The position numbers were made by a program, and so were the translations under genes. The notes beneath the pieces were generated by a model. The model was not told the DNA's origin, searched no databases, and was given only the letters and a program-made list of their open reading frames with translations. A stretch of DNA of 32,106 nt from Kipferlia bialata. Lineage: Eukaryota. The stretch spans positions 1 to 32,106 of the forward strand of contig BDIP01000090.1 in assembly GCA_003568945.1 (NCBI GenBank), given 5' to 3'. Shown in pieces: positions 896 to 29,564 of the stretch. Positions within the stretch are counted from its first letter, which is position 1; the number at the start of each line of letters is the position of its first letter.

Positions 896-1476
896 TATGT
901 ACTAGTTGGACTCAGTATATAGGGGTATATATATATATATATATATGATATATGTACTAGTGGGACTCAGCCTGGTGTACACAGTGTCATCGGGTACACA
1001 TACTCTCCATCATATAAATATAGATTAATATGTATTAATAGAAATGTATAAATCCATGTTTCCATGTGTTTCCCTTACCCCTATGTCTCACCATCTTCAC
1101 CGACGTCATTCAGTTCTTTGTCATCCATCTCTTCTCTCTCTCTCTCTCTCTCTATATATTTATATATATATATATACATATATATAGATAACACCAGGTC
1201 TCACTGGAGCCATCTTTACCGACGTCATCCAGTCCTTTGTCATCTCTATTTCTCTCTCTCTCTCTCTGTCTATATACAAAAGCATATACTATAATGTATA
1301 TGTCTTACCTTTAGGATTGACCGGTGCCATCTTCACCGATGTCATGCAGTCCTTTGTCGTCTCTATTTTTCTCTCTCTCCCTCTGTCTATATACAAAAGT
1401 ATATACTATAATGTATATGTCTTACCTTTAGGATTGACCGGTGCCATCTTCACTGATGTCATCCAGTCCTTTGTCG

Positions 1477-1511
<35 letters not shown>

Positions 1512-2533
1512 ACCTCTATAACACTAGGTCTTACTGGTGCCATCTTCACCGACGTCATCCAGTCCTTTGTCATCATTGGAGCATTCATTGCATTTGCCAT
1601 AGTGTTCTTCAGAGAAAGCATCCCTGCTGCATTCACTATCCTTCTACCTAGGTACCTAGATACTGTATATGTATATATTGTGTTCTTGTGTTTCTGTATC
1701 TCTTATTCTCCTTTTCTAGTGTGGACGGTGGTACTCCCAACAACAGTGCATACTGTATTCACTGGCTCTATATATGTATATATGTATATTGTTACATGTT
1801 CTTGTTGATGTACTTCTTACTCCAGTGTTGACGGTGGTGCCCCCAAGTCCTATGTCCGCACCTCATATACATATCATATACACATGAATGAATATATATG
1901 TTATTTCTGTAACCTATCTATATCTATCTATATATCTATATATATGTATATATAGTTCTAACCTCAAGTGTAGATGGAGGTGCCCCCAAGTCCTATGTCC
2001 GTACCTCAGCAGAGTGGCTGTCCATGTGGCCATCTGCCAATGAGGCAGTGCCAGACGGAACCTCATACACAAAGTGAGTCGTATATACACACAGGGATAT
2101 TTATATTATGACGTGTGTATTCTATCTATTTGTAAATATATACGTATCTGGCCAAGTGCCAATGAGGCAGTGCCTGAAGGGACATCTTACACAAAGTACG
2201 ATGTTCTTTCTGTTACTATTGACACTATATACTGAACATTGAATGTCACTGATGTGTCATTTGTACATTTTTTGTGGTCATCATTTATCTCTGCGGACGT
2301 CCACCCGTGTCAGCTATGATAGTAGTCCCTGTATGTCTGACCCCAGGTACAACAACGTGGTTGTGCTGGCTGTCTCCTACATCATCAAGAGCATCCTGGA
2401 GGGCGCAGGTACAGTACATATTTGCGTGTAAATGTATATCTAGTGAGAGGGTGGGGGATTGTTCAATATGCGTACTATATCTTCAAGTATAAGCAGAGCA
2501 TCCTGGAGGGGGGAGGTACAGTACATCATATCG

Positions 2534-2568
<35 letters not shown>

Positions 2569-5500
2569 GACCAGAAGAGAATGGAGTTAGGTATACATAG
2601 CATGTGTGTACACATCAGTACATATGCTATCTCACCCCCAGGTGGCAATGAGACTGGTTTCATTGTGCAGAGGTTCTTTGCATGCAACAGTGACAAGGAC
2701 GCAGGTAGGGGAGTTCTATCTTCGTGTGTGGTATTAATACATAATTTATAGCGCAGCCTATTCCTGTCTTTCCCGAGGCAAGATGTCCTCCCTGTGGATG
2801 GCTGTATATATGTATATGTATATGTATATCNNNNNNNNNNNNNNNNNNNNNNNNNNNNNNNNNNNNNNNNNNNNNNNNNNNNATCACTATATGTATTAAT
2901 TAAAACATATTCATTTCTTACCCCTAGGCAAGATGTCGTCCCTGTGGATGGTCCTGGATATATACATACATATTATATATATATGTGTGCGTGTGATTGT
3001 ATGTGGATATCAATATATGTTTAGATTCGTGTCTAACCCTAGGCAAGATGTCGTCCCTGTGGATGGTCCTGGCTGCACTGAGATGGCCATTTGTGGCCAC
3101 TGTTGCCATCATGGGCATCAACTACAACATGACAGCTATCAGGTACAGTATATATACTATATACTATGTATAATCATTTAAGGATTTATGTATATATAAT
3201 ATGTTTCTCTCTGTGAGTTGAGAATGTGGCCATCATGGGCATCAACTACAACATGACAGCAACAAGGTATATTGTAGACACTGTATATTACACTCAGTGT
3301 GTTCTATATCACGTAGTTTAGTAATCCCTCACCCTCCAGTCCCATTGAGGACCCCGAGCGTGTCCTCTCTGCCGTGATAGCCAACGTGATACCCACAGGG
3401 CTCAAGGGGGTAATAGTGGCAGGTATGTAGTTACTTACACGATATGTGTAATGTATATCTACGTGATGTCCTTATCCTTCAGTTCTGCTTGGCAGTGCCA
3501 TGGGCTCCTACAATGCAGTGACCAACGGAGCAGCTGCATACTACGTGCAGGTAAGGATATTGTTTTTTTCCCTAGACATACATATGTCTAAATGAATCAT
3601 ACTATGTATTCTTTGTCTCTCTTCTCTCATTTCCAGGATATCTTCAGACCCTTCATCAAGCCAACTGCCAACCAGAGGGAGCTGGTGTTCCAGGTACATA
3701 CAGGACTATTTTTAGAGATACAGCGTACACATTGAGTACATTCCAGGAAGATTGTATATGTATAGTATATATATATATATATATATAAGTGTGTTTCTTT
3801 GTGTTATTGTGCACTGACCTCCAGGGTAGGCTAGCCTCTGTTGTGATTGTTCTGCTGGGTGCCATGTTTGCACGCATCAGCCAGGTGGGGCCATGGTGTA
3901 TTGGGATTTCTTCTCTTTATGTATATATATATGATTATTCATATAATAATATATTCTGTTCTCACCCATCAGTATGGCAGCGTGACTGAGCTGTGGGGCT
4001 GGGTCAACATGTCGCTGGGGGCTGGCGTACTCGCACCTCTGCTAGTCAGGTATTCTTTTTTATTCCCATATACTTTCCTGTGTATGGGTTATACATATCA
4101 AACTATTTGACACTGGGCTGGCGTACTCGCATCTCTCCTAGTCGGATGTGAGTTTTGTCTCTATTATCATTCTATTTTCTGTCCCCCTCACTTTAGATGG
4201 GTCTGGTGGCGTCTCAATGGATACGGCTTCTGTGCCGGTATCGCAGGGGGTACACTGGCAGCCATCATCCAGGTATTCTATTGTTTGTGTATATATATGT
4301 GTGATTATATGTGGCAATTGCACCACCTCTTTCCGGGGATATACCACTCTACATTCCCCTCTGACCCCTAGGGCATCTGGTTCCCCCTGATGTCTGAGTG
4401 GTGCATGTTCCTGGTTGTGACACTGGTCTCATGCATAGCAATGTTCATAGTGACACCCCTCACCAAGCAGACAGACACATTCGTCCTGGGTACGTGAATT
4501 GACATATATATGTATATATAAATATGTGTGTGTATATATATGTGTATACTCGCATATATCTCTCTTTCCTCGGTTTCCTTTGTTTGGTCACAAGCTTTCT
4601 GTGTGGTGTTATCTGTATATCCCTCTCTCATCTCCAGTTGAGTTCTTCCAGAAGTGCCAGCCCTGGGGTCTGTGGAGCTTTGTCTACCCACTTGTAGGTA
4701 TACAAAAGTACACTGTCTATATACTTAACTCGATACTCATTCGGTATATACTGTGGTATATACTTGGATGTATACATATGTCTCTGACCACTAGGCAAGG
4801 AGCTTGAGCACCACACCCAGAGTGAGATGAAGAGAGACCTGGTCTCTGGTAACTTTGCCTGGATCGGCCAGATTGCCTTCTACCTCGGCATACTCACACT
4901 GGCCATCCCAGGTACTCTCTCTATCTTTCTATTTCTCTCTCTCTCTCTATCAATACCATAATTTGTCGGCATCCCAGGTGTTCTCTTTGTTACTCTCTCT
5001 CTCTCTCTCTTTATCTCATTGCCCTTCCCTCCATATCTCTTGTTCTCTCTCTTTCTCTCTGTATACTCATCCTGACCATCCCAGGCACTCTCGTTGTTAC
5101 TCTCTCTCTCTATATCTATTTCTCCCTCTCATTGTAACTCTATCATGTGTATATGTCGCTCCCTCTATTTATGCGGATACTTACCCCTAAGGGAGTCCTG
5201 GTATAACGTGTAGTATATCTCATTATCTCTATCTCTCTTTGTCCCCAAGTCTCCTTGAAATATCTCCAATATATATACTTATCTTAGGGGAGTCGTGGTA
5301 TGACGTGTACCTGTCCTTCTCAGTGGCAACGGTGTGTGCGGCAGGTAGGGATATTGACACTATTAGTATATACATGTATATTCATATGCGTCCCTGTTAG
5401 TCTTTCTGACTTGTGGCGATGTTTGATGTATATACACCTTTAATTAATACTCTTTGCCAACATATATTCTACTGCACTATCCCTCAGGCCTTCTGTGGTG

Positions 5501-5984
5501 CAGATACACACACACATATACATGCATATATATACATTCACACCCTTATCATCAGGCCTTCTGATTGTGTGGTACAGACACACACAGACATACCCGTTCT
5601 CTCTCTCTTTCACCCATGTATATATGCACACTAACCCATCAGGCCTTCTGATTGTGTGGTACAGACATCTACAGGACAAGGATGGGAAGGACAGGGCGAG
5701 GGAGGAGGAGAGAGACATGGAGAGACAGCTAGGTAGGGGTGAAGACATATAGTGAATTTACACCCCCCCCCTCCCCCCCCACACACCCATACATACATAT
5801 CTATTTGTCTATTTGTATGTGTAGTGATTTTGATTATGGACTGATTGTAGGTGTCAGTCCCCGTGGTTCTCTTAAGAGACTGGATGGAGATGGTGCTGGG
5901 GAGGGAGAGAGTGACAGTGAGGGCCAGGGACAGGGAGAGAGGGCATCTCTACTCGGAGCAGAGACTAGGTCTTCACTGTACTAG
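35..5984 (+). CDS. Sodium:solute symporter (SSS/SLC5 family), 5'-partial, 20 visible exons
   Basis: Phase-consistent exons: 35-97, 448-512, 615-692, 1528-1651, 1969-2073, 2347-2408, 2642-2704, 3043-3142, 3340-3422, 3483-3550, 3637-3693, 3825-3884, 3973-4049, 4197-4272, 4372-4489, 4638-4697, 4795-4911, 5288-5344, 5643-5732, 5851-5984 (TAG). SSS motifs: YTVSSGLTGAIFTDVIQ, VQRFFAC, IPTGLKGVIVAVLLGSAMGS, YYVQDIFRP, WWRLNGYG, with many hydrophobic helices. Confidence 0.9.
2831..2882. other. Assembly gap (N run) inside a symporter intron
   Basis: Run of n characters. Confidence 1.
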
Positions 5985-6392
5985 TACCGAGGAAATAGAA
6001 CGTATCTATATGATTTGGAGTGACTTGAGTTAGGCTCAAAGTCCAAGATCCTAGGAGCCTAGCAAAATCTCTGCCTTGGTGAATGTGAAAAAGGGTTCAC
6101 TTCCCTTGGGTTCCAAAAACGCTATATTGCCTATTCATGCTTCTCTGTAGGCTCAGTATGCCGCCCCCGTCAGGTATGTACACCACCAAACCTCTATTAT
6201 TTGAAACCGCACGCAGTGATCATAATCCCTTTCCATTTGTTTGAAATATTTATGTGTATCTATCCCAGTGTATGTACTTGTGCATGACTAGATATACAGA
6301 CCCCATATATGTACTATATATATATATTATATATATGTTGTAGAGTACATGTGTCAGCAACACATCATATTTTTACTCTCTAGATATCATCT

Positions 6393-6419
6393 CCCCCCCC
6401 CCCCCCCCCCCCCCCCCCC
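6393..6419. repeat. Poly-C tract (27 nt)
   Basis: Homopolymer run upstream of the first recognisable copine exon. Confidence 0.95.
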
Positions 6420-6628
6420 TCCCCCCTCCCCCTCCCTCCTCATCTTCTCTGACCCCTCTGCGTGATCATATCAACATATATCTCTCTGGACCCATACTTC
6501 ACTAATACTCTCCCAGAACTCTCAATTCACTCAGCCTCCACCCCTCCCCCCTCCGGACCACTCCGAGGGATCCCGCCTCTCTCTCTCTCTCTCGCTCTCT
6601 TTGTTAACTCAACCCCCTGACTCCTCAG

Positions 6629-8501
6629 CATGACCCAATCAACCTGTACCGCTTTGGGTGTACTGACACCACGGACCAGAGGGTGCTGCCCCTGGGGCAG
6701 GCAGGTGAGTGGCTAAAGAGAGTGATCGATATTTACAGGTTATTAGGTTACGGCATCAGTATAGTTATCCTACTTGCTGCCCCTGGCACAGTCAGTTGAG
6801 ATATATATATATATATATATATCCCATTACGTATATTCTGAGACTGATATGAATAGTATATACATATACTGGCACGATCAGGTGACAGTATCAGTGTCAC
6901 TAATATTGTATTCATTATAGTGTATGTTATAATAGCTAGTAGATATGTATACTGATATTCAGGTGACGGCACATGCGCTGGGACAGAGGTGAGGTCTCTC
7001 TCCCTCTTTCTAACCTGGAAGGGTACCGATACTTGGTGTTGAAGGTTCACGTGTCCGGGCTGTTGACCCACGTTGACCTCTCTCTGAGTGTGTGTCCCTC
7101 TACACACTCTACCCACTGCATCTGTATCTCCGATACTCTTTCATCTCTCTCCCCCCTCTTATCACCAGGCAGCCCTGGCCTGCTACCGTCAGTCCATCCC
7201 TAATATCGTGATGGGTGAGAGAGTGGCCCTGGCACCCCTGATTGACCAGACCATTCGGTACGGATTTCTCTCTCTCTCTCTCGTCCCCTCGTTCTTCATC
7301 CAGAAGATACATACATATATATAGACATTTGAGACACCTCTCGGTTCTCTCTCCGCCTTCCCCCGTCGCTCCCATATCCCTTCAGTCTAAGTAGAGCAGT
7401 TTCTCTATCTCACAGTTCATATATAGACATATTTGTATCTTTGTCTCACCCCCAGTGATGTGCAGGGGACTGGCCAGTACATGATATATTTACATATATA
7501 TTATGTTAAATATATATACTAGGCTAGTACTGACCCCAGCGATGTCCAGGAGACTGGCCAGTACACTGTGCTGTTGGTACTGACCTGCACTGACACATCA
7601 GGTGCATCAGTGTCTGCAGTATATATATATTATATATGAGTATGTACATATATACCAATAGTACACTGTACTGTTAGTCCTGTCATGCAATGACAGATCA
7701 GGTTTATGTGTAGAGTATACTATATATATATATATATACAGTATTATCATGTATGCCACAAGGACAAGCGCTGACACATCAGATGTGCAGGGTGTATATG
7801 TAGATAATATACTATGTATTTGTTAAGTATATATATATGCATATATATCTGTTAGTCCTGACCTGCACTGACACATCAGATGTGCAGGGTGACATTGCTG
7901 CCCTGGAGAGACTGGCAGAGTACCCAATCAGTGTCATTGTGGTATGGGTTATATGTATATACTTACACATGTCTATTTTTCATTCACAGACTGTATATCA
8001 ATGTATATATATGTGTGTTTGTGTGTGTGTATATACATATACCAGTGTGTCATGGAGAGACTGGCAGAGTACCCAATCAATGTCGTTGGTATGTGATATA
8101 CACACATATTTATACATTAGCAGACTGCATAATAGTGTGCGTGTATATATATATATATATATCAGTGCCAAGGAGAGACTGACAGAGTACCCAATCAGTG
8201 TCATAGTGGTATGTGTTACTTATATATATATATATTTGACACATATACACTCCAATCCAAATCTACATAAGTTGTACAAAAAACAACAACCCCCATAACA
8301 CAGTCAAATTTTTATGTATTCATAGTTCAGTAATTACACCCTTCTCTCTTAACCCCAGGTCTGCCTGGGTGTTGGCAGTCCTGATGGCAACCCCCACAAG
8401 TACCGCCATCCCCTACCCACCCTTGAGAGAGACATACCCAAGGGACTGTCCAGAAAGGCCAGACAGCACTACGAGACATTTGTCTATGACTCGGTATGAT
8501 G

Positions 8502-8548
<47 letters not shown>

Positions 8549-9546
8549 AAGAGAGAGAGAGAGACATTTTATTTTCCAAAGGGCTTCTCTAAGAGGGCCA
8601 GACAGCACTACGAGACATTTGTGTATGACTCGGTATGGTGAATGCATGCATTCATATAGTTGTATTACCTACAGATTTATTTCTCTCTTCTCATTTTCTT
8701 ATGCCAGGTTATGGGGTATCCCTCCTCCTTAGACATCTGTCTCTCTCTCTCTCTCCCTCTCTTTATATATAGATATGTTTATCCCACTCCAGGTCATGGG
8801 CTGTCCCGGTATCTTAGATATATAGCTCTCTCTATTACATAGATATGTATATACATACCCCAGGAGATAGGCTGTCCCCATATCTTGGATATGCCCCTCT
8901 CTCTCTCTATATATATATAATTATATATATATATAGATATTGATATATAGACATGTTTATCCCAGGTGATGGGCTGTCCCCGTATCTTTGAGGGAGACAC
9001 TGAGCTACCCACTGAACAGATACAGGCTGCTGCTATGCTGCAGTACCTGCCCAAGCAGTACAAGGTACAAATATGTATATATATGAATATTGGCAGTGTA
9101 TATATATACAGAATAAATACAGAACAGATACAGGCTGCTGCTATGCTGCAGTATCTACCAGCTCAGTATAAGGTGCATATGTATATATATAGTGAATATA
9201 TATGGTGTATATATTCAGTATATACACAGAACAGATACAGGCAGCTTCTATGCTGCAGTATCTACCAGCACAGTATAAGGTACTATATAATACTATAAAT
9301 GTATCCAAGGTCTAAAGCCCTCATCCCCACCTGTATACAATAGTATATGTAACTTTATATATTCTCAGGGTATCTCGACGTCTCTCTCTTCCTTCATCCT
9401 ATATAACCACTTCGATCCCCAGAAGATGCAGGCCATTCAGATGTTCATAAAATATGTATGTATTTATGTATATGTCCTTCCCCTACTTCAACTCCCCTCA
9501 TCTTCAGAAGATGCAGGCCAGGGGTCTCATCCCTCAGGATGAATAA
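6629..9546 (+). CDS. Copine/RGLG-type VWA-domain protein, 5' part missing
   Basis: Exons 6629-6704, 6963-6988, 7169-7257, 7540-7601, 7880-7941, 8359-8493, 8966-9064, 9508-9546 (TAA). Translation INLYRFGCTDTTDQRV..C.G...ALACYRQSIPNI...ALAPLIDQTI...GQYTVLLVLT...LAEYPISVIVVCLGVG...AMLQYLPKQYK follows the copine/RGLG VWA motif order. The N-terminal DFTxSN segment is not found. Confidence 0.72.
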
Positions 9547-9875
9547 GACACTCATGTGACCCAGCGTGCGCCCACAGGTGTAGATAGATACTGATACCGA
9601 CACATCACAAGTGTATACAATGGGTCCAGAGGGGAACTGGCTCTTCCAGACAGACTTGATACTAAGTACTCTTTCCCGAAGCTCACAAAGAGTCTGCTCG
9701 TCACCGTCCCTTGGCTTGTGTGTATTGTAAATAGAAGAAGTGTGAGTTTCCAAGTCTGTTATATTCCCATTCTCTCTGCCTTCCAACTCTGGTGTGTACG
9801 TAAGCTGACTTCTACGAAACCCTGAGCTGTCTGTATGGGGAGACCACGTATCTCTATCAGAGACTCTCCAATGTC

Positions 9876-12800
9876 CTACTCCGGTGAGTACTGCTGCACC
9901 CGGCAGAACACCATCTCCTCAAAGGACAGGCTGGGGTCAGACTAGCCGGAAGGAACCAATATTAGTAGTATTCCAATCGACTGTTCCAAGTTTGAATAGC
10001 GTACCTTGTGGCCCCGTCCATCTGCCTTCTGGGAGCCTCACCATGAATGCAGGATCTGATACTCTCTGTGGTTTAGAAGGCAACACCCATACAATAATAG
10101 ATAAGAACCTCAGAAGAAAGAGGCCCCCAACTAAATATTACTCTTATATACATATGGAGAGTGAAAATAGAGTGTATGGAATTTGGGTAGATGCTAAACC
10201 CAGTACATATACCTATGACGGCATCGTCTGCCTTTGTGCTCTTGGGTGACCTGGCCATTAGAACCCCAATAAGACATGATTGTGTATAACTATAGAAATT
10301 GGAGTACAATCCTCGCTCATAAACCCAAAGCCTCTCATTACTAGAGTATATGTGTAGACTCTACACTGTAGAGTACCTGAGAGAGAGTAGCAGTCTGGCA
10401 TTGGTCTCGCTCACACCCTCCGCCCCAAATAGTCCCTCAATGGTGACCTTTGGGTTAGTCGGTTAATGACTGTATGGCTGAGTTACTAAGTTGTGTATCA
10501 TAAATGCGTGTACCTTGATGAGACGTGTGACATCACTGTTGGGCTGGGCGTAGTTGGGTATAGCCAGCATAGACTGGGTGAGCTTGGTAACTCTCCTCGT
10601 GAAGGCAGGATCAGTGGCGCTCCCTAGATTAGCCACATGGCTCTTGAGGAAGGTGTCTGAAATGAGTCATTCGAGATGCAAGGTAAGGTGAAAGGATATA
10701 ATGTGTACCAATTACACATCTCTACGATAGGTATATTCTATGTTTGGATTTCCCTTACCTATGCGGAAGATGTCTGAGATGAACCTGGCTTTGACGTCTG
10801 GGTTCTGCGGGTTAGGATATGTATACAGAGAGAGAGCATATATCTAACACCTCCAAGTGTCAGTGTAGTTATTCGACCAGTTCTGAGGTCATTCACCTCA
10901 GAAGTAAGTATACTATATATAGTTGATGACATAACCTATTGAACGTAGAATGTGAAGATAATGCACACATACCCGCAGTGTGTGTGACTTCTTCATCCAG
11001 CCTAGACCCCAGATGGGCTTGGCTGTGCCATCTCGGCCGGTAAGTCTGACGTCAATAGGAGAAATAGTTCTGACAATACTTTGCAAATTGGTAAACAGTG
11101 AATCTGCTCGTGCCCTGGTGTGTAGGTTTCCTGGTAAAAGAGATTTTACATAGTAACCACACCACTACCTGAGGAGAGCAGCTGTAAGATAGGCAGCGAA
11201 GAGCTGGTTGGGCAGCAGGTTACGTACAGTGTCCTGGTATTTAGTAATTAGGTGACTGTTTGATCAGAGGGTATATATATTCTAACGTGGTATAACACCG
11301 AGTATAGTATGATGTAAACTGTAGAAGTCTTTGTAATAGAAGGTGTATAGTAAAAACTCTAACATATACTACCATATAGACTATATATGGTTGACACTAA
11401 CCACCAATGCTGGAGAAAGAGTTGACTGGACATCGCTTAGCAAGTAGCCAAGGGCCCGTAGGGACAGGTCTTTGGTTAGTGTTAGTGTTAGTCAGTTTGA
11501 GTTAAAGCACTGGAACATAAGGGACAGAAGGGAAATTGTCTATTTCAAAGAGAGATGCTTTATGACTAATCAAGAGAGGCGTACAGCTACTAGTAGTAGC
11601 CTACTACAATGAAAAACACCTTTTAGTGGAGCCACTTATACATGTAACACAGCGGCTTTCGAATACTATATGCAGAATACATACAGTATTCTATATTTGT
11701 ACTTCATGTGCATACCTATGACGACCCCTTCGCCTGAGTCTAGCCACTGGAGGTGAGTATTGAATTGAAAGTGTTGACAAAGGTTTGAATGTATATGCAA
11801 ATAGGTAGCATTCGGGAAGATATAACCTTCTGTGTCATGATGTCGTGGGCTGATCGGGTAAAGATGTCATCTCGCATCATGCTCCTGTTGTGAATAGACA
11901 ACTGAGTTGTAGATATATTTGTGATACATAAAAATAGCTACCTAATATAACATCTGGAGTTATAGTCAACCCTATGAGTTGTGAATCTCCACCCGTATAC
12001 TTATAGTAGTACTCTATGTGTGTGTGGACAGCGGTGTACCTGACATACTGCCGGCTAAGTGACTCCGAGACTCGGCTTAGCTCAGTCCTAACGTCCTCAA
12101 GGATACTAAGTGTCTGGGTGTCAGAAGCATTTCAGGTTATAGAACAGAAGAGTATCTAGAGTCCTCAAGGATATAGACACACGTGACAAAGTGTTGCCGA
12201 CAACATAAGGAATGTTGACACACATAGACATGCCACGTAACTATGACTGCCAGAGTGACACGTATATCTATACTACTCATAGTATGAGTCTCATACCTTG
12301 TCGACTGTCTCTGTGAAATGATCATCACATACAGCCTCAACAAGCGCAAGTGACACATCATCAAGGGAGCTCTGAAGGGCAAACACATCGTTCCAGAGTA
12401 CGGTGACTGCCTAGGTGTTAGCTACTAGAATTGCAAGACAACTAGTGAAAGACCTAGTAGGATTTGAAAGGCAATAGGCGCTACTTACCTTGTGTGCCTG
12501 CCAGGATCGAATATCCACTGTCCCTGCATCTATATCTAGATCAAAGTATGTGGCAGAGGCATAGAAGTCCCATGGGTACTGGTCTATGGACACAACGTCA
12601 GAGTCAGGGACCATGCTGTAACTAGGACAGGGGATGGTCATGCCTGTCAAAGTAAGAAGAATATACTGTATCATTCACATGCTTGAACCTATGTCATTAT
12701 CGAACTGATATTTTCCATACCTGGAACAATAGATGAGTAGAACTCTGCTACATGAGAGTAGGATGCGGCAATTGCTGGTCCAAGAACTGACATAATCTGA

Positions 12801-15800
12801 CGTTAGAGTCGAAGACGTGATGATTTGTATTGCACTCGACTCTGCATCTTGGTGCTTGCAAGTTGCAATGATATACATTATGTCTTGGACAATAGTAAGG
12901 TGCCAAAATATGACTATTCATCAGCAAGACAATATCTTTGGCAGCCCCCATAACAGACATACTACTACTAGCCTTTGGGTCTGCTGTGTCACACTCTCTC
13001 TTGAGCCTGTCCGTCACTGCTGCTGTAAATAACTGCGGCACAGAGGTAAGTATGCTCGTGTTAACCTGGGATCAAGCATTACTTGAAATGATTTAACCAA
13101 TCAGACCATCACAATGGCATTTGGCTCTTGTCATAGATATGATGCAACAGTTATTATATTGCATATGTGATTTCCCGTATATATTCCGTTACCTGGCTGT
13201 GACAGCCAGGCTGGCTGTCTCCACTGGTCAACTGCGAGTCCTTCCCAGAGAGTGCCCTGTCAATGAGGAAGCTATACCAATCACTATCAGCTTCAATGTG
13301 TTTCATTATCGTTTGTAACGGTAACGCCCTTTGTGACAAAGGCTTTGTCTCCTCAGGTATCATACCTGGGATACAATGTGGCGACTATACTGTCCCACTG
13401 TGTTGTCAGGTTAAGTGTGATCTGTGCCTCATGGGCAGAGGAGAGTCTGAACAGCATCACTGTTGTCAATTGAGAGCTCGGCAAAGTACACATGTGTTGA
13501 AGGATTCGGTAGCCGGAGCACTTCCAAAACGTATATGTGCGATATACAGATGATATATATGACTGAGAACACAGAACATCATCTTTGTCACCTGCAAGTG
13601 GCTGCGGTGGAGAGCTAATATCCTCCTGGAGATAGGGGGCATCGCTGTCTACACTGCCCACACCTATGGTTGGTTGGAGATAGAGAGCTTATGGTGATTA
13701 CATCTTAGTCTAATTGTGTCTAATAGTAAAAACAATGTCTTATATGATACCTCATCATTTAACAATCCTAATATAGCGGTTACAAAGTTTGTAATACAAA
13801 CTGACATTGTACACTAGAGACACACCTAGGAGTCTTGCTCTCTCATCCCACTTGTGGGCAAACTCCATCACGGAGAGAACTACATCCCGAGGCACATCGT
13901 TCTCGAGGATAGTGTCTATCATGGAACCAAACACCTGACGTGAAACTGATTCTGAAAACGACTGGTTATGACTACACTATTCAGCTAGTTACCTCCAGTT
14001 TAGCTTAGCCTTAAGATAGATTAAAGTAGAATTTGTTCATAACATACCACGTTGAGCAGACTGTGGTGGTGCTTCACATACTCTGCTACCACAGGCAGTG
14101 GGGAGAATATTGGACCTAGGCTAGTTGCCACATCCTGTGGTTAGACTCTAGTTGCTATTGAAGTAGAGTATGAATCCTTGGTGAAACCGAGTGGAATGCA
14201 TCTGACTCACCTCTGTTCTCTGGAGAATGTCTTCACAATGCTCCAGCATCAGAGCCACATTGTCGACACTGGCTAGGATAGGGCGACCTGAGAAAGAGTG
14301 AGAAAGACACATAAGTGTTACTATACACATAGCCGCAACATATGCTGCCACAAAGAAAATAAAATATAATAGTTACGGACACGTACTGCTGTCGATGCTG
14401 AAGATGGACTGCTGGAGGGACTTGAACGCTGCAGCGACCCAAGAGGTTGGGGTGTTGTCACCCGTCTCGCCTCTGTCACCCACCAATGACACATCCTCAC
14501 TAGCCTGGGCCTTAAGTACATCAGCAACGTCCCTGGAGGTATAAGAATGTAGAGCCTCAATGTACAGATAGAACGTACTAGAACATTTAAGATGATGTAA
14601 GAGTACGGGTGTTAGCATTGAACCATATGTACGTTTACTCAAACTAGAACACAGTCTACCTCAGAGTGTCCTCTCGCCCATTCTGTGCCCACGCGAACCA
14701 GTGCTGTGGAGTGCGCACTATGGCTGACTTGAGCCTGTGATTAGATGACAACACAATACTTTCCATGTGGTATCATTATCGCACTGTCGAGACATCCCTA
14801 TATTCCGACTCCTCCTGCTTCAGACTAAGACTTAGTGTCTTCAGACTAAAACTTAGTGTCTTCACATATTGAGATACAGTCACCGATAGGAAAGAAGAGT
14901 AACTACCAACCTTGCTTGAAGAGGCCCTATGGGCTCAAGGCAGGAGAGTGTCCTCCTAGTGTATGTGTTGAGGGTCAGTGTGTGATCAGTGTCCGCGTTC
15001 CATCGTAGAGGGCGAGTGATCAATGGCTGAGCACGATGGGGACCAAGTAGTGGACTGCGTAGGTGCTCCATGACATCGTCCAGTTCTGGGGTTAGATCGA
15101 AAAACACGACACGGTAAATGTTCATAGTACTAATAATCTATCTTAGTAGTGCCACTCACCCACACCATAGAGTTCCAATACTCTTGCACGCATTCTCCCA
15201 TACACATTTTGCATAGGCTGCAGTCTCTCATAGGCCAAAAGATACCTGGATTGAGAGAAAAACTACTGTACGGTTTGGTATAGAGGTACTGCAACATGCA
15301 GTCTGCAAGTATACATCTCCTGTCGTCATATTACTGGCATACCTCTCATCACGGAGAAGCGTTGCCACAGACTCACTCTCAGTGACAAGGTCAACCTGGT
15401 GATGAAGATGGCGGAGATAGAGAGGAATCTTAAGCAAAGGTCTATCTATGCCCTTGACTTGGGGGTGATTGGTACGGTAAAGAATCTACACGTACCTTGT
15501 ATCCCTCCAGAGCAGCTGTAAGAGCAGCTTCCAGCTTTGGATCTGGTAACCCGCCTAGGGCGTCCTGAGGATTATCATGTTGGTCAATATGTCGGTTGAG
15601 GTAATTACAAACACAGTGACAAACCTTAGTCTGTCTGAAGACCGGTAGCCACGCCATGACATTGTATGCTACCTCTGTCCACATTGAGAGACCAGGAGCC
15701 TAAAATCAGTGGATTGTTGAACGTGAACCTACGCATACCTTGCCATATGCAGGACGGTGTTTGACAGTCTACATGTTGCTGTGAACAAGTAGGAACATCG

Positions 15801-18800
15801 ACTATCACAGGTAATGCCTTCAAACCTATAGATAACTTAGACATAGTCAGACATAGACTGTGTTGTTTTCGAACACAGTTTGGTTGAGAAGGTCAAAGAA
15901 CGCGTATATCTCTCACTGCATGGGACATTGTAAATAGATTTCAGTCACTTACCACTAGTGTCATCTTCGTAGGAGATGTCTCTGGCCCGTCAAGCTCCAA
16001 CTGAGTTTAGCTAAGTACAGTAGGGAGTACAATAATTATAGATCGTCAATAGAATATACCAAAGTGTCATACCTCAACGTCGTTGAGGTCTAGGGAGTGG
16101 GTAATCCTAAGCAGGTCAGGAGACTCCCCACTCTTGGGTGCAGCGCCGGAGGACCTCCTTCTGCCTACGACCTGGCTCACCAGGAGATGGTCGTTCAACA
16201 GGAACAACGTCCGGTTGCGATGGACCTTGACGCCAAAGGTCGACGACTGCACCTGATGTCAATGATAGTTAGGTGCATCAACACACATACCCGATTATGC
16301 TCCCTGTACCTGCATCTGCATCTCCTGCTTCAGTGATACATGGGGCTGGGTGAGGAACTCTACCATCTCGTCTCTGTTGCCACCTGTGAGTCTATAGCAC
16401 AGGGCAAGGATACCGTCCTTTCCCTCGAGGTGTCCTTTAGTGCTCTGAACACTCTGTGCAACCTCCTTGAGACCATGCAAGGCCCTCTCCATATCCTCTA
16501 TCTCAGGGTGTCTGGGAGGCAGCTTCTTCAAGTACTCCCCTGCCAGCAACTCATAGCGCATAACACGCTGCCAGGGCTCAGCGAGAAGAGATCCCACAGT
16601 ACTGCGTCAAGAAGATAGAGGAGGTGAATGCAAGTTACATGATGTAAATGACAGGCAACGCGCCAGCAAAACATACAAGTATCCGTCGATACAATGCAAC
16701 TTGTTACACTTGATACCTGGGATACTCTTCCTTTCCGACAGTACGGACTTGCACTCTTGTAAGGGCCTCGCACACACTGTCTTGCTCCATGAATGTCTTA
16801 CAGCTGTCATAGTAGGCGACATATCCCTTGAAGGAACTGATCAGAGGGGTCCACTCAACCAGCAGAGTCGCCAAAGTCTTGTTGGCAGTCTTCATGCCCT
16901 GGAGGCTGGACACGAATATGTCACTCACATTGCGGACCAAGTCGAGACCTGTGGCATATCTAGCCAGCTCCTCCTGCTGTGCCTCACTCAGAAGCGGGAG
17001 GAGGTCACTGAGCCTTGTGGACAGCTCACACACACGAGCATTAAATGTAAGCTCAGAGGACAGTATCTCTGCTAGGACCCTCTCATGAGTTGGCATGTCT
17101 CCTGCCTCTGAATAAGCAGGTGTTGAGATGCTGGTTGTTGTGACGGTAGACAGGTCACCGGTGGAGAGGTCAATGGACGCCACCGGAGCATCATCTGCAG
17201 CCCCATCCACATCATTCCCAACGGGTTGCTCCCCGGTAGGGTAGAGACCTAGCTCGTCTAGCAGCAGCTGGCATAGCGACTGATAGCAGGGTGAGACACT
17301 CAGGCATCTCTTTGGCTCTGGTGTGATACATAGAATCCCAGAGTCCAAGAGTACACTGTACCCAGGAGTGACGGAGAGCTCCACTACTCCAGCGGAGGAC
17401 ATAGAGACAGATCCACTTGGGTCCTGTCCCAGAAGGGCCAGAAGAGGCAGCAGACCAGACAGTCTCACTGCACCAGTGATACCAAGTCTCTCTAGCACTG
17501 CCTCACCGGTAGGTGCATCCAGTAGAGGGGAGTAGGGGTTGGAACACGACAATGAGCAAGAGAGAGATAGAGAGGGCGCACACATGACACGGCTACCAAT
17601 GCGCTCCTGCAGAAGCTCTAGCATGGCGGGGTTTCCAAGAAGAGAGCGGAGGGAGGGGGAGAGATACTCAGGGAGGCCGTAAAGTGACATGGCCTGAGAG
17701 ACCTCGTCTCGTGAGAGACGTGGGAGATGGACCGTGTAGGAGCCTGCCTCGGGGCTCGAGAGGCTCTGTGTGGCGGACAGGAGAGTAGCGTCCTCGATAC
17801 ACTGGCCCCAAACTGCAGGGGTGGAGGTGACCATAACTAGTGTGTGTCCGTTAGTGGCCTAAGGGTGAGTGGGTACCAAACTAAACGACACTGACGGTGT
17901 GGACTGTGTACAGTCAGCAGATAGAAGGAACATAGACACAATGGCTTGAGATACGTTGTATGTAATTGTATACTTCATGCATTGAGACACCGTTGACAGT
18001 ATTGGACACATCACTGTACCTCAAGTAGCTGTGTCACCCAAGTGAGTATCTTTCTCCTCTTTTCCGCTGTTTCCACCTCCTGCAGACCGTCGAGGACAAA
18101 GAGAACCCTCCTGTCACTCCCAGTGATAGAGACCAGGAGAGGGGCTAGCTCACTCATAGAGGACACCCCAAAGAGAGAGTGCAAGGTCTCCTCCAGTGGC
18201 TGACTCAGTGACAAGTAGTAGGGCACCGTGGAGAGTGTCTTGTCACGGACTGTCTGGAGAGTTAGTGCAGCAGCCTCCCAGGTCTTACCCATGCCCCGCT
18301 CTCCTAGGAGGACCATGAGAGGCATAGTACCCTCTGCTGCTACCTCCTAGTTGTTGGTGATATGTATACAGGAGGGGGGGGGGACTGGCCATTACTATAC
18401 ACCCTATAGAGTGTATATGCCACGAGTATATACCAGTTACACCCGCAAGTGAGACTATACTACTCATAACTTATGAGTCTCATAAGTATGGATCTATGTA
18501 GCAGTATACGAACCTGACCAATGAAGTCTGTGTATGCCTTGTGCACACTCTCTCTCCTGACATAGAGAGACTCATTGTACTGGGTGCCTCCCTCACTGCA
18601 AAGGTCCTGCTGCAGCAGAACACCCTCAGCTACCTGCAGAGCGGTGTCTAGAGGGATAGAGGCAGAGGTTGGCACCTTGGCCAAAGCGTGTAGACCACCC
18701 AATGCTGCTCTACAGTTCTCGACAGCCATCTCTCTCCCTCCCTTACTGTAGCAGATCATGCCCTCGCAGTGTGAGAGGTAGGTATCCACCTCAGGGGTGA

Positions 18801-19272
18801 GGGTGTCAAGGTGCCACACCCAACTACGCCAGCAACTGAGGATATAGTCAAGGTCTAACTTGCCATCGTTGTGGGAGAGTAGGCACTGGAGCTGCTGGAG
18901 GTAGGGCAAGACCACCCTGCTGACTAGACACCGTGTAGCGATCTCTTGCTCCTCTGAGGGTCTCTCTGGGTCAACGGGAGTGCCCACCATGCCACTGACC
19001 ACGCTTGACATGTCCTTGTCACCACTGTAGACAGGGGCAAGGTGGCTCAGAAGCGCTGTATGGACGTCACTCTCAACTGCACCCAGTCCTTGGCCACGCA
19101 TGTCGTGTGTGATAGCTGCGGAGAGGGCCCTCAGGCAGTGGGATACCAGTGAATGGCCGTTGGCATCTGTACACAGTCCAATGGCTGCAGGCACCACAGG
19201 GCTGGCGGGGTCGATAGACAGACCCACCAGAAAGCCCAGGAGGGAGTCACGGCAACCTTCTACCCCTGGCAT
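9876..19272 (-). CDS. Large multidomain protein: N-terminal helical region + STAND/NACHT-like NTPase + RhoGEF DH + PH + long unassigned C-terminal region (>30 exons)
   Basis: Exons 19272-18514, 18346-18020, 17903-17882, 17836-16717, 16601-16310, 16252-16073, 16000-15953, 15768-15739, then a largely phase-consistent run of short exons down to a TAG at 9876-9878. Phases near 10800-11130, the exact start and the last exon are uncertain. The link across 15953-15768 is inferred from completion of the PH domain. Confidence 0.65.
14818..14864. repeat. 21-bp tandem repeat (~2.2 copies) in an intron
   Basis: cttcagactaagacttagtgt / cttcagactaaaacttagtgt / cttca. Confidence 0.85.
15625..17090 (-). other. 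Dbl-homology (RhoGEF) + PH tandem within the large gene
   Basis: ERVLAEILSSELTFNARV (DH CR1), FKGYVAYY, SLLAEPWQRVMRYELLAGEYLKKLPPRHPE...MERAL (DH CR3), PH strand RTLFLLNDHLLV, and a C-terminal helix with W (NVMAWLPVF). Confidence 0.85.
17600..18570 (-). other. STAND/NACHT-like P-loop NTPase module within the large gene
   Basis: YVRR motif, Walker A GERGMGKT, Walker B VLFVLDGLQE, sensor-1-like IMVTST, and a GxP motif (LLGNPAMLELL). Confidence 0.75.
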
Positions 19273-23500: not shown

Positions 23501-23628
23501 CAAGTCCAGACACATCAGATGTCCACTATGACACCGGAGGTGGAGACACAAGAGAGAGAAAGGCAAGTACTTGAAGGGACACAGGTGGCAGGGATATATA
23601 TGGAGAGTAGAGAGATAGATACACCCAC

Positions 23629-24073
23629 CTTGGATAGTTGTCCCAGGAGCTCGCCCCTATCCTCATCTGAGGCCTTCTTGAGGGCCTTCCGGATGCCCTT
23701 CTCCTCTGCAGAGCGCATCTCCTGCAGAAATGCAAACTGCTGGTCGAACTTGTCCTGTCTGAAGGTGCCAATGGCAGAGTCGAACCTTGGGTCCAGACCC
23801 CTCTCCTCCTCGTGGTACTGGTAGGCAGACCCACGCACAGGGCGGGCAGCGTCCACCTCCTGGGGGCCAGCCTTCTTCTTCGACTTCTTGGACTTGCCGT
23901 GCCTAGAGGTGTCATAGATGCGCTCCCTCAAGAGACTAGTGCGAGATAGCTCTCGGTGCTGCCTGTGTGAGTTAAACTGAGGAGAGTGCAGACAATACCG
24001 TAGATACGTACACTGTGGGCTTGAATCCCTGCTGGGCGAGCAGGTCCCCCATAGGGGTATCGTCATCGTCCAT
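23629..24073 (-). CDS. RRP36: rRNA biogenesis protein RRP36 (DUF947), 3' part missing
   Basis: Exons 24073-24012 and 23962-23629. KAGPQEVDAARPV...LDPRFDSAIGTFRQDKFDQQFAFLQEMRSAE matches the RRP36 core. No C-terminal exon is recognisable after the donor at 23628. Confidence 0.8.
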
Positions 24074-24374
24074 CCAGGATCCATAAAGAGAGGGTAAGGA
24101 TGGAGTCCAAAACAGATCCACTCTTCCAATGATTCTTCAATCGAGGCCATTCCATGGAAGACGAAGCAGGAGTGCATGAGGGCACATTCAATTAACACAA
24201 AGGAGTGCTTCGTTCATAAAACACAGAGTGAAACCATTGAATGACAGACACTGAAGAGACACCGAGACACAATCCTGAATCCAACAGACACAAGAAACAC
24301 ACACATGAAAAGAAAGACACCGTCACAAGCGAGCCAACACAGCAGAGAAGAAATTGGATAGGTTCTATTCAAAC

Positions 24375-24827
24375 TTACTCCTGCTCCTGCTTGAGGGTGT
24401 GGTGGCACCTTCCGCAGTAGAGGCGGGTGGTGGATCCCTGGGAGTGGCGGGAGTAACGGACACCGGCACCGCAGTGCTGGCAGTCGGAACGGAGACGGCG
24501 GATCTCACCCTCACCGGAGACCTCGAAGTACTTGAGGACAGCCAGGGGGTTGGGCTTCCTGACCTGCTTGACCTTGCTGGTCTTGCCGACAGCCTTCTTC
24601 TTTCTCTTCTTGGCACCACCGTCGAGGGGAACAACGACGTTGATGGTGCTCTCCTCCTCAAGGCACTCAAGAGTGGCCTCAGTGAGGATAGAGGAGCCGG
24701 TGGCCAGAACGAATCCGGACATTCCGGTCATAGACTCGACAGCGTCAGTCACATCAGCGACGCAAGCGCCAGAGGCGACCTCAAGGGCGAAGGTGCTGCA
24801 AGGGGCACGGACAAACAGCTGGACCAT
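24375..24827 (-). CDS. RPS27A: Ubiquitin-like domain-40S ribosomal protein eS31 (S27a) fusion, intronless
   Basis: 150-aa ORF. A 71-aa UBL ends in LDGG, followed by AKKRKKK, LAVLKYFEV, IRRLR, and zinc finger CQHCGAGV...RLYCGRC. Confidence 0.93.
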   Translation of the reverse strand: MVQLFVRAPCSTFALEVASGACVADVTDAVESMTGMSGFVLATGSSILTEATLECLEEESTINVVVPLDGGAKKRKKKAVGKTSKVKQVRKPNPLAVLKYFEVSGEGEIRRLRSDCQHCGAGVRYSRHSQGSTTRLYCGRCHHTLKQEQE

Positions 24828-25087
24828 GTTATATCAAGGCGAAAAACACACCAACGCTGCTTCGATGTAGGTTTTGACCCAGACCTTTCTTTCAAACGGA
24901 GACAAATAGTACCCTGTTCACTTTTATTGCAAAAGTGGTATCATATTTCCAGACGAAAAACATTGTTTTTACTCTGCTTTCCGACGAACCTCATTTCGAC
25001 TATTTCCACGGGGTGTAGCTGCCAGCTTTCCAAAAACAGTGGGGCAGTTCAGCACCATATGAGTCCACTGTACACAGACAGTGTGAG
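24828..25087. promoter_or_regulatory. Probable bidirectional promoter region between RPS27A and the RFC subunit
   Basis: 260 bp between divergent ATGs, microsatellite-free, with short A/T runs. No specific element identified. Confidence 0.5.
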
Positions 25088-26629
25088 ATGCTCTGGATTG
25101 ACAAGTACAGACCCAAGAAGCTGAGTGACCTTACTCTGCACCCAGAGATCACAGATCGGTTGGAGAGGCTGGTGAGTGACTGTGTTCGGACATAATATGT
25201 ATTGAGTAGTATTCATCAGCGTGAGTGTCCGTGCTCACTCCCAGGCTGACTCCCCTAATTTCCCTCATCTACTGGTCTATGGACCTGAGGGAAGTGGTCG
25301 GAAGACCAGAGTTCTTGCTCTGCTTCACAAGATGTTTGGCGCCAGTGTCCAGACTGTGAGAGCCAGTCAGTACGAGTACACTACTGGATCCAAGAAGGCT
25401 GAGATCCCTGTGCTTATGTCCAACTATCACATTGAGCTCACTCCTGCCGATGCTGGTAACGACGACCGTGTAGTGGTGCAGCAGATCATCAAGGAGATTG
25501 CCTCAACAATCCCTGTCAACCAGAAGAAGGAGGCTAGGTCGTTCAAGGTGGTGGTGCTGAACGATGTGGACAGGCTCTCTCAGCTTGCCCAGCAGGCTCT
25601 GCGTCGTACTATGGAGCGGTACGCTTCGTCTTGCCGCATTGTGTTTGTTGCCAACAGTACCTCGAGACTCATCCTGCCTCTCCGCTCTAGGTGCCTCCCA
25701 GTCCGTGTCCCGGCCCCCTCTGAGGAGGACATAGTTCAGTGCATGAACAGAGTGGCAGACAAGGAGCTTAACATTGACTGTGATGATGAGGTGTGTTAAG
25801 TGCCAGCCATAGTATTTCCAGGAGTATTTCAACATATAGTAGGTGTAAGCGGTATTGTTGAGAGACTCTCTTACATCAGGGACTGGCCCGGGTTGCTGCT
25901 CAGAGCAGGGGAGACCTCAGGTACATCAAGTGTCTTATACCCCAATGTCTTGGTTTTATGTACTGCTTCTTATCCAGTCTATATTATGTGTCAATCATGT
26001 CAGTACTCTATACATCTCTCACCCTTAGGCGTGCCCTCCTTGTGATGCAGGCCATGGTGACCCAGTTCCAGCAGGTCAATGCCTCTACACCCCTCGTGGC
26101 GGCAGAGTACGAGCTCATCCTGAGGGACATCGCTGCCACTGTCGTCAAGAAGCAGGTGAGATATATATTCACCGATCTGTATACACATATGCCACTCTAT
26201 GTGAGAGGTGAGAGAGTGAGCCGCATTGTATTTACCTTTCCTACAAGTATATGTCCCCATTCTGACTCCTCAGGAGCCCAGTGCTCTTGTTGGCATCCGG
26301 TCCCACCTCTACACCCTCCTCGGTGCCCTCATCACACCCACAACCATCCTGGAGACACTAGTGAGGGAGATTGGTACGTATATAACAATAGTCTGCTATC
26401 TATTTCACCCTCATTGGGCCGATTGGTGCGTATGTATCATGGTCTACTCTAATTTTACCCGGCTTTACTATTGATATTCTTACCCCCAGCCCTACTGTTG
26501 CGCAATGACGTTGTCAAGATGGAGATGACATTCTCTGCCACTACATACAGTAGCAGGATCAACCAGGGTGGGTATTCATCCGTATCCTTTATATATCTAG
26601 TTCACTCAAGGCTCCATGTCCATTGATCA

Positions 26630-26662
<33 letters not shown>

Positions 26663-26746
26663 ACCATAGGCTCCATGCCCATTGTGCACATCGAGGCCTT
26701 CCTCGCCAGGACCATGATGCTCATTGCCCAGTATAACCGTCAGTGA
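25088..26746 (+). CDS. RFC3: Replication factor C small subunit (human RFC3 / yeast Rfc5 type), complete, 7 exons
   Basis: Exons 25088-25171, 25245-25790, 25880-25920, 26029-26155, 26274-26374, 26490-26567, 26670-26746 (TGA). Motifs MLWIDKYRPK, PHLLVYGPEGSGRKT, SNYHIELTPADAGNDDRVVVQ, AQQALRRTMERY, LRSRC, GDLRRALL, IVHIEAF. Confidence 0.95.
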
Positions 26747-27393
26747 TGGGTACACACCCGCCTTGGCTATGGGAGTGTTCTCCTGCTGTGTAGTTGTAGT
26801 TAGTGTGTGATTTGTGTTTGTGTCTTATCGATTGTTGTTTTTCTTGTTCCCTTCCGTGTATTTTGTGTTGTTATTGTCAGCATGTCCCACCACTGCTTGC
26901 AAGTGTGTTCAATAGAGTCTGTGGTGTTCAATGTCTCCAGTGTCTAAAGTGTACCATGAGTCCAATACCCCATCTTTATTATTCAGTCCAATGTTGAAAA
27001 GATACATGACGTGATGGTTCCATACTAGTAGAACAGGACCCTGACACCGCTACTGGCCGACGACTATATCTCTGTGTCAACGATGGCTTGGGGAGTATGA
27101 CGTAGGGGCAGAGCCTACACATACATGCCCTCTTGGCACCAAGGGGTGAAGAGCCTGGGGCTCCAGGCCCTCCCATATACTAGTACAAGAGACGAAGGAT
27201 AACACCAACGGTCAGCAGTGTCCATGCCATAACTCGTCACTCTGAAAGGCAGAGGGCGTATCCGTATGTGTCTTGACCTCTGTTGCGGGAAGAACTGGTC
27301 ACTATCCACTACCCGCCTGTCCTAGATGGATGTGGGACGGGCCCACGATACATAGCGGCATCTCTCTCTCTCTACCTCTGTGGGTGGGTGTAT

Positions 27394-29431: not shown

Positions 29432-29564
29432 CCCCCTGCACCAATTGATTGTCATAATAGATCGTTCGAGCAACACAAGACACATTTGATTTATACGTAT
29501 TTGGTACATAGATATGGCAGCATATCTGCTGCCTCACACAACACACATACACACTCTCTCCCCT

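Follow-up and report, generated by a model that had tools for sequence, protein, structure and literature searches.

A STAND NTPase joined to a DH-PH module and a helical rod in Kipferlia bialata

Introduction

Can an NLR-like switch be built into a regulator of Rho GTPases? The question is raised by the gene KIPB_000736 of Kipferlia bialata, a free-living fornicate protist, which lies on contig BDIP01000090.1 (32,106 nucleotides, the whole stretch analysed here and called the window below). A first-pass annotation of the window had described, at 15625..19272, a STAND/NACHT-like NTPase fused to a RhoGEF DH-PH module and had taken it for an NLR-like switch wired to Rho output. NLR-like immunity is known in animals, plants, fungi and bacteria.

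We find that KIPB_000736 is a real gene and that the fusion is larger than first described. The protein consists, in order, of a helical N-terminal domain, a STAND module (nucleotide-binding domain, NBD; HD1; winged-helix domain, WHD), DH-PH and a helical rod of about 740 residues. This layout is a new architecture inside a known kind of system. The reading that we favour, with a probability of about 45%, is that KIPB_000736 would be a sensor NLR-like protein with integrated host domains that monitors the Rho-GTPase and vesicle-tethering machinery. The rod, a family of 13 Kipferlia members and a link with Asgard archaea go beyond the earlier description.

Gene structure

KIPB_000736 runs from 19272 to 9876 on the minus strand, and all its features given below are on that strand. 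The annotated protein has 1521 residues encoded by 28 exons, with GT-AG at all 27 introns. All the motifs that had been noted by eye lie where they were placed, and the DH begins at 17087. The GNP motif and DH conserved region 1 (CR1) do share one exon, as had been claimed; the start of this exon is at 17858 and not at 17836, and it is joined in phase 0 to a donor at 18020. Position 15625, which had been taken as the end of the gene, is a splice donor, and 21 further GT-AG exons lead from there to the stop codon at 9878-9876. These add about 580 annotated residues, or about 740 once missing exons are restored.

The true exon number is likely to be 34. With the paralogue P0003 (KIPB_003295) as a guide, six extra exons with canonical splice sites could be fitted. 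Two of them, at 15245-15160 and 15085-14911 (14911..15245), keep the frame and raise the score against the paralogue to 317 from 149. The other four, at 12113-12040, 11884-11827, 11746-11716 and 11469-11402 (11402..12113), also keep the frame between GT-AG introns and are the best chain in a beam search scored on the paralogue (113 versus 40). An additional exon near 13065/13032-12955 was left out because the score was barely better (299 versus 267). The restored frame, based on splice signals and paralogue comparison, has 1685 codons in 34 exons and is stop-free. Bacterial contamination was rejected, given the 33 GT-AG introns and the eukaryotic neighbour genes.

The STAND module

Pfam NACHT matches the annotated protein at aa 263-406 (E 7.9e-8; 32.8 bits against a cut-off of 26.7), and a model of aa 1-578 built from a 60-sequence alignment is confident (pLDDT 84.4, pTM 0.86). 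The NBD (aa 229-408, exons 1-3, 17721..18588) is delimited by Pfam, the model, structure matches and the alignment; HD1 (aa 409-456, with the conserved Pro439) and the WHD (aa 480-566), together at 17247..17720, by the model and structure matches. Foldseek places CED-4 and ZAR1 at the top and also lists NRC3, ORC/Cdc6, Apaf-1, Avs4 and NLRC4. In VIA-align, where the STAND matches (Z 12-17) cover about aa 229-570, the best is 2qen (PAB2304; Z 17.0, rmsd 3.8, 277 aligned), and 2fna (SSO1545; Z 15.4, rmsd 4.1, 277 aligned), a wheat resistosome (Z 15.4), chain B of the NAIP/NLRC4 entry 8fvu (Z 14.7), Avs5 (Z 14.3) and NLRP3 (Z 12.8) also match. BrxC scores too (Z 15.6), and so do ORC/Cdc6, with Z values of up to 14. 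The best structural matches over aa 229-560 (PAB2304, SSO1545, CED-4, Apaf-1 and ZAR1) are only 12-15% identical in sequence. The region thus models as NBD-HD1-WHD and is, on the model, a STAND NTPase; the fold alone is insufficient to fix the subclade, because ORC/Cdc6 score nearly as high.

There is no evident HD2 after the WHD in the model, which ends at aa 578. What follows the WHD is a low-complexity acidic and Ser/Thr-rich linker (aa 567-619, 17088..17246) that has no counterpart in the paralogue KIPB_004599. The passage of the paralogue directly from WHD into DH suggests that HD2 is absent.

The nucleotide-binding motifs are partly degenerate. Walker A (GERGMGKT, 18304-18281) is intact and includes Lys274. 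Walker B (18103-18077) reads DGLQE, and the suspicion that its Gln342 is unusual proved justified: the column holds Asp in 57 of the 60 aligned rows and Gln only in KIPB_000736 and its closest paralogue, and the Glu in the next column is found in 58 of 60 relatives. Sensor 1 (VTST, 17831-17820) has Thr375 in the same two proteins where 56 of the 60 rows have Arg. The signature D[GAS]hDE, which defines the NACHT clade according to 10.1101/2022.07.19.500537, is kept by the family and is degenerate in KIPB_000736. The GNP motif is at 17636-17628. The Gly of GxP is no hallmark of the family: two of the 13 Kipferlia rows have it, and near-invariance is limited to the Pro.

In the NLRP3 data of PMC9633759, the equivalent changes D305A and R351T leave ATP turnover at 0.18 and 0.10 of the wild-type value. 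The same source describes D305A as a gain-of-function disease allele, reports that R351T abolishes ASC specks and retains about half of IL-1beta release, and gives Thr as the native sensor-1 residue of NLRC4. On this basis the exchanges of Asp342 for Gln and Arg375 for Thr predict that KIPB_000736 hydrolyses ATP slowly. Slow hydrolysis may mean either an on-biased or a scaffold-like switch. Thr375 lowers the catalytic expectation and is no argument against descent from STANDs, since NLRC4 also carries Thr.

DH-PH, rod and N-terminal domain

The DH (RhoGEF) domain (aa 620-800, 16430..17087) is supported by PDB sequence matches, paralogue alignment and Pfam (aa 623-794, E 2.2e-14, 54.5 bits against a cut-off of 27.6). 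With NACHT and RhoGEF both above their cut-offs, the STAND and DH-PH fusion stands as first described. The PH domain (aa ~828-945, exons 4-8, 15553..16348) gives only weak Pfam hits (aa 830-901; PH_EXO84, E 6e-4, below cut-off) and is kept in both DH-bearing paralogues. The helix-6 Asn of DH domains has a role in the catalytic surface. KIPB_000736 has Gln795 where its paralogue and human DH domains have this Asn, and Arg758 at the Lys position of CR3. The CR3 motif is retained, as is CR1 Glu631, whose position at the beginning of the Pfam match was assigned from the motif. PMC5727386 names the Glu of CR1 and the Lys of CR3 as catalytic.

The C-terminal rod (about 740 residues with the restored exons, 9876..15552) is 32% identical to that of P0003: 227 of 719 aligned residues are identical, with a score of 636 against 42 +/- 5 for 200 shuffles, a score that is somewhat inflated as the restored exons were picked to maximise this very match. 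An Atlas search with the last 320 residues of P0003 (aa 1420-1740) finds Sec6/PATROL1 clusters at 0.96 (191/256 features). The ten best named matches all belong to one family or clan, and Sec10, Vps53 and RINT1 sets come next; the same search with the incomplete annotated rod gave no usable match. The rod model, made from two sequences, is of low confidence (pLDDT 45), and Foldseek finds no significant match to it. The Sec6p C-terminal domain has the highest Foldseek probability and query TM, both non-significant (0.85, TM 0.31), and Cog4 and myosin V cargo domains appear in the same list. In VIA, where generic helical hairpins fill the top rows and many others are generic helical matches, Cog4 reaches Z 8.8 and Munc13 MUN Z 8.5. 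There is no Pfam Sec6 match at E<=1 in KIPB_000736 or at E<=0.01 in P0003, no CATCHR match in PDB sequence searches (profile search A1 was dominated by LRR proteins), and nothing was found in a word-based homologue search with the P0003 rod. By eye the rod was reminiscent of Sec6, which we took as a lead and not as a test; a first-glance reading of the C-terminus as WD40/BEACH was dropped. Taken together, the data make it likely that the rod is a CATCHR rod, Sec6/MUN/PATROL1-like and not filed as Sec6 proper. It is like the rods of Sec6/EXOC3, M-Sec, Munc13 MUN, PATROL1, Cog4 and Vps53 in the Atlas result and the weak structural matches, and differs from them in sitting behind a PH domain and in the absence of a significant sequence or structure E-value.

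At the other end of the protein, aa 1-200 (18673..19272) are all helical in the model. A hydrophobic hairpin segment at aa 22-46 (19209-19135) is common, in alignment and hydropathy, to the Kipferlia paralogues and the Asgard relatives. This is a putative effector or membrane-facing domain.

The Kipferlia family

With aa 1-578 as the query, exhaustive phmmer searching recovered 60 proteins at E<=0.001. Thirteen are from Kipferlia (KIPB_000736, P0002-P0012 and P0026), so that the paralogue count called for in the first-pass annotation comes to at least 13, the search having been run over 50%-identity representatives. The top 11 non-self matches are all Kipferlia; word-based searches returned only KIPB_000736 itself. 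Behind the STAND module there is RhoGEF in P0002, MORN in P0004 and P0005, ARM in P0007 and P0008, and LRR in P0006, P0009, P0011 and P0012, and no C-terminal domain was recognised by Pfam in P0003 (E<=0.01), P0010 or P0026. RhoGEF was seen in 2 of the 60 STAND relatives, both Kipferlia (Pfam, best five families for 31 proteins), so that the architecture is rare within this set. DH-PH lies in the sensor slot and not in the effector slot, the slot being the one that holds LRR, ARM or MORN repeats in paralogues. No LRR was matched by Pfam in KIPB_000736, and because it lacks C-terminal leucine-rich repeats the protein is NLR-like and not a strict NLR. As a separate observation, P0012 (KIPB_009169) has an RNA polymerase I A49-like domain ahead of its STAND module and LRRs behind it, which is either an integrated domain or a merged gene model.

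Two paralogues have a matching layout, one STAND-DH-PH and the other STAND-decayed DH-PH-rod. The latter, P0003 (1748 aa), can be aligned with KIPB_000736 over the STAND module (E 6e-45), over the end of the DH together with PH (E 2e-17) and, at E 2e-17 and 9e-22, over the C-terminus. Its Walker B and sensor-1 motifs are intact and PH-rod is kept, and its DH is without the CR1 and CR3 motifs and gives no RhoGEF match at E<=0.01; this DH loss is decoy-like decay. The closest paralogue, 37-38% identical to KIPB_000736, shares both STAND substitutions and retains the helix-6 Asn. The pattern is reciprocal: DH catalytic-surface residues are kept in the two copies with degenerate STAND motifs and lost in the STAND-intact copy.

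In a careful rooted tree of 52 rows, a subset of a 76-row set, the 12 Kipferlia rows are a clade (100/99), as are the three DH-bearing copies (99/97) and KIPB_000736 with P0002 (100/100). DH-PH was thus most simply added once. KIPB_000736 is on a long branch (0.81 + 0.72).

Asgard relatives and origin

Among the 47 non-Kipferlia phmmer matches, 18 were looked up and three carried taxon names, all of them Asgard (Hodarchaeales, Lokiarchaeota and Promethearchaeota). A GTDB scan with a 20-protein alignment of such matches confirmed 17 loci from 49 pattern matches: 14 titled Asgard, two from uncultured archaea and one titled Gammaproteobacteria. In a metagenome scan, 596 pattern matches yielded a single confirmed locus, a distant STAND of 1468 aa that served only as an outgroup. 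No other named eukaryote appeared among the phmmer matches or the scan relatives. The Asgard STANDs (Promethearchaeota, Thorarchaeota, Hodarchaeales, Asgardarchaeum) are thus the nearest named non-Kipferlia relatives. Like KIPB_000736 they carry the hairpin at the N-terminus and the pre-NBD, Walker and WHD motifs; they differ in being intronless prokaryotic genes with intact motifs and repeat sensors; C-termini among the prokaryotic relatives in the 60 are LRR, HEAT, WD40 or FHA, and DH-PH was seen in none. One family member, P0013, has matches in 12 of the 201 genomes sampled from the Asgard phylum and in 1 of 301 in the phylum of the Gammaproteobacteria-titled contig's genome, the one being the seed genome itself.

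Several observations concern this Asgard family as such. In P0013, P0017 and L001-L017 an amphipathic-plus-hydrophobic hairpin N-terminus is conserved, and the family is apparently uncharacterised. P0029 and P0057 have a CHAT domain in place of the hairpin. In Promethearchaeum syntrophicum MK-D1 a TIR_2-LRR gene (L015:7056-8192) follows the STAND-LRR gene, which suggests an immune-type pair. The close family member on the contig titled Gammaproteobacteria (L005, genome G003) reflects mis-binning or transfer.

Quick trees place Kipferlia beside a Promethearchaeota-rich group and support its nesting in Asgard (98 unrooted and 89 rooted). In the careful rooted tree its nesting in Asgard has support below 80, and an approximately unbiased (AU) test with 32 of the 52 rows does not reject a position of Kipferlia outside all other ingroup rows (p 0.242); the outgroups are two long branches and the sampling is query-centred. 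The distribution is patchy, and because of this a late Asgard-to-eukaryote transfer is the simpler reading and the probable one on present sampling. The patchy Asgard presence itself resembles that of a conflict gene. According to 10.1101/2022.07.19.500537, eukaryotic NACHT modules are thought to derive from repeated prokaryote-to-eukaryote transfers, and PMC11291487 raises the possibility of a common ancestry of Asgard proteins and some NACHT groups of eukaryotes; among the rows listed in its table, Kipferlia appears only for viperin and Argonaute. A fuller scenario, which we consider rather unlikely as a whole, is that a free-living fornicate acquired, long after the origin of eukaryotes, a whole effector-STAND-sensor cassette of Asgard archaeal descent, expanded it to an NLR-like repertoire and independently invented integrated-domain receptors guarding Rho GTPases and exocyst-type trafficking, with sensor and executor copies dividing the work.

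Neighbouring genes

The remainder of the window holds an RRP36 gene (23518-24213, minus strand), an intronless ribosomal protein S27a gene (24378-24833, minus strand), whose ubiquitin-like N-terminus is too divergent for Pfam ubiquitin at E<=0.001, and a replication factor C small-subunit-like AAA gene (25088-26747, plus strand). Two intron-rich regions, 1100-7300 (plus strand) and 29500-32106 (minus strand), are by eye presumably membrane-transporter-like (sodium:solute symporter-like and arsenite/citrate permease-like); the single exons tried gave no Pfam match. An open frame of about 144 codons that adjoins the KIPB_000736 stop (9448-9878, minus strand) has no Pfam match and may be untranslated or a small separate gene.

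Discussion

STAND proteins generally have an N-terminal effector, a central switch and a C-terminal sensor (10.1101/2022.07.19.500537). We favour a sensor with integrated domains because DH-PH-rod occupies the repeat slot, the DH is decayed in P0003 and the switch is degenerate here. The domain order, STAND fold, family and motif changes are observed; all that follows on ligands, partners and output is inference. PH and rod would place the protein at membranes where Rho/Rac GTPases and tethering factors act. The DH, with GTPase-binding residues mostly kept, would bind a GTPase or act as bait for an intruder's effector, and a change at the DH would free NBD-HD1-WHD. The protein would then signal by nucleating or partnering paralogues whose motifs are intact, in the manner of NAIP/NLRC4 or of the sensor-executor pairs of plants; such partnering is proposed because of the slow predicted hydrolysis and the more polar N-terminal hairpin.

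A close parallel in layout is with plant NLRs that carry integrated domains (RRS1, RGA5, Pik-1, and the Exo70-bearing RGA2a and RGH2), which also have a STAND core with a host domain at the sensor end, including an exocyst-type rod. According to PMC9528084, plant sensor NLRs with integrated domains can do without the P-loop, the sensor partner's nucleotide site may be dispensable, and some carry Exo70. KIPB_000736 differs from them in having no LRR, in its STAND clade, in its DH-PH and likely Sec6/MUN-like rod, and in that no linked executor was seen in the window. With NACHT NLRs (NLRC4/NAIP, NLRP3) and bacterial NACHT proteins it shares the NBD-HD1-WHD fold, the D[GAS]hDE of its family and, with NLRC4, the sensor-1 Thr; it differs in DGLQE, in the absence of a visible HD2 or a repeat sensor, and in an N-terminal helical fold not matched to a known one. 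The Dbl-family RhoGEFs P-Rex1, NET1 and ASEF have the DH-PH tandem, and to our knowledge none of these, nor Roco5, has a STAND ATPase. Dictyostelium Roco5 does join DH-PH to a nucleotide-switch/LRR protein, in which Roc is a Ras-like GTPase. In the literature found, within the accessible text of PMC10853773, PMC7539657, 10.64898/2026.10.28.762692, PMC5727386, PMC8305018 and PMC6784791 among others, the STAND-DH-PH fusion or family is not described; most subscription papers were outside the scope, so that absence from print is not established. The accessible text of PMC13581612 and its seven supplements mention neither Asgard, Kipferlia nor RhoGEF.

Several points weigh against a sensor role. 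The KIPB_000736 DH retains the CR3 motif as well as Glu631, and its closest paralogue has the helix-6 Asn in addition, as would be expected were exchange activity under selection. There is no known ligand, pathogen or paired neighbour gene, and the neighbours in the window are housekeeping genes. PADLOC has no match in 6/6 Kipferlia proteins and weak or repeat-domain matches in 4/8 prokaryotic relatives, and the Asgard gene neighbourhoods are mixed, with one TIR-LRR neighbour among 32 open reading frames scanned. The hairpin of KIPB_000736 is only slightly less hydrophobic than its relatives' (1.46, rank 32/40), and bacterial NACHT proteins can have C-terminal effectors (10.1101/2022.07.19.500537).

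The Rho output proposed at first is only one of two readings, the sensor slot and the DH decayed in one paralogue telling against it. In its present form it holds that KIPB_000736 is a domesticated signalling protein: a slow or nucleotide-locked STAND scaffold would gate and cluster an active DH-PH exchange factor and the CATCHR-like rod would tether vesicles or SNAREs, so that at a single membrane site the activation of Rac would be tied to exocytosis or phagocytosis. We regard this as a close alternative, somewhat less probable than the sensor reading. The catalytic-surface residues of the DH, which include the CR1 Glu and CR3 Lys positions named in PMC5727386, are by and large kept in just the two copies with degenerate STAND motifs and have been lost in the STAND-intact one, and two old paralogues have retained the rod (32% identity across 719 aligned residues); yet Gln795 and Arg758 depart from the conserved Asn and Lys, the rod is missing from another model, and the slot holds sensor repeats in all other members with a recognised C-terminus.

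It is unlikely that rapid shuffling of domains, in a family that is expanding, has left the protein as a decaying or scaffold-only product in which neither the switch nor the exchange factor works. Substitutions in Walker B, sensor 1, DH helix 6 and the N-terminal hairpin do meet in one protein on a long branch, but the 1685-codon frame is stop-free over 34 GT-AG exons, the fold is confident and Walker A is intact. Moreover, both STAND substitutions are old and kept, because they are common to a paralogue only 37-38% identical. We think it very improbable indeed that gene prediction has wrongly merged STAND-DH-PH with a rod that has its own gene downstream, such as a gene for the organism's Sec6-like subunit. 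The length of the rod is about that of a free-standing CATCHR subunit and the KIPB_004599 model stops after PH; against this, the PH-to-rod intron after the donor at 15625 has 60 nt and neither shifts the frame nor contains a stop, which leaves the frame open past PH whether the intron is spliced or not, and the independent locus KIPB_003295 has the same junction and is alignable across it. That two paralogues have the same layout also makes a merged model unlikely.

The STAND-DH-PH-rod layout would connect a conflict-type switch directly with the control of actin and exocytosis. The three natural paralogues, with their reciprocal loss of ATPase and GEF motifs, make the question of decoy versus output directly testable. 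The Asgard STAND family, with its conserved hydrophobic N-terminal hairpin, is a candidate defence system. If the nearest relatives of the Kipferlia genes are Asgard, the family would either have passed from Asgard to eukaryotes late or be a relic that the other sampled eukaryotes have lost, and both would be surprising.

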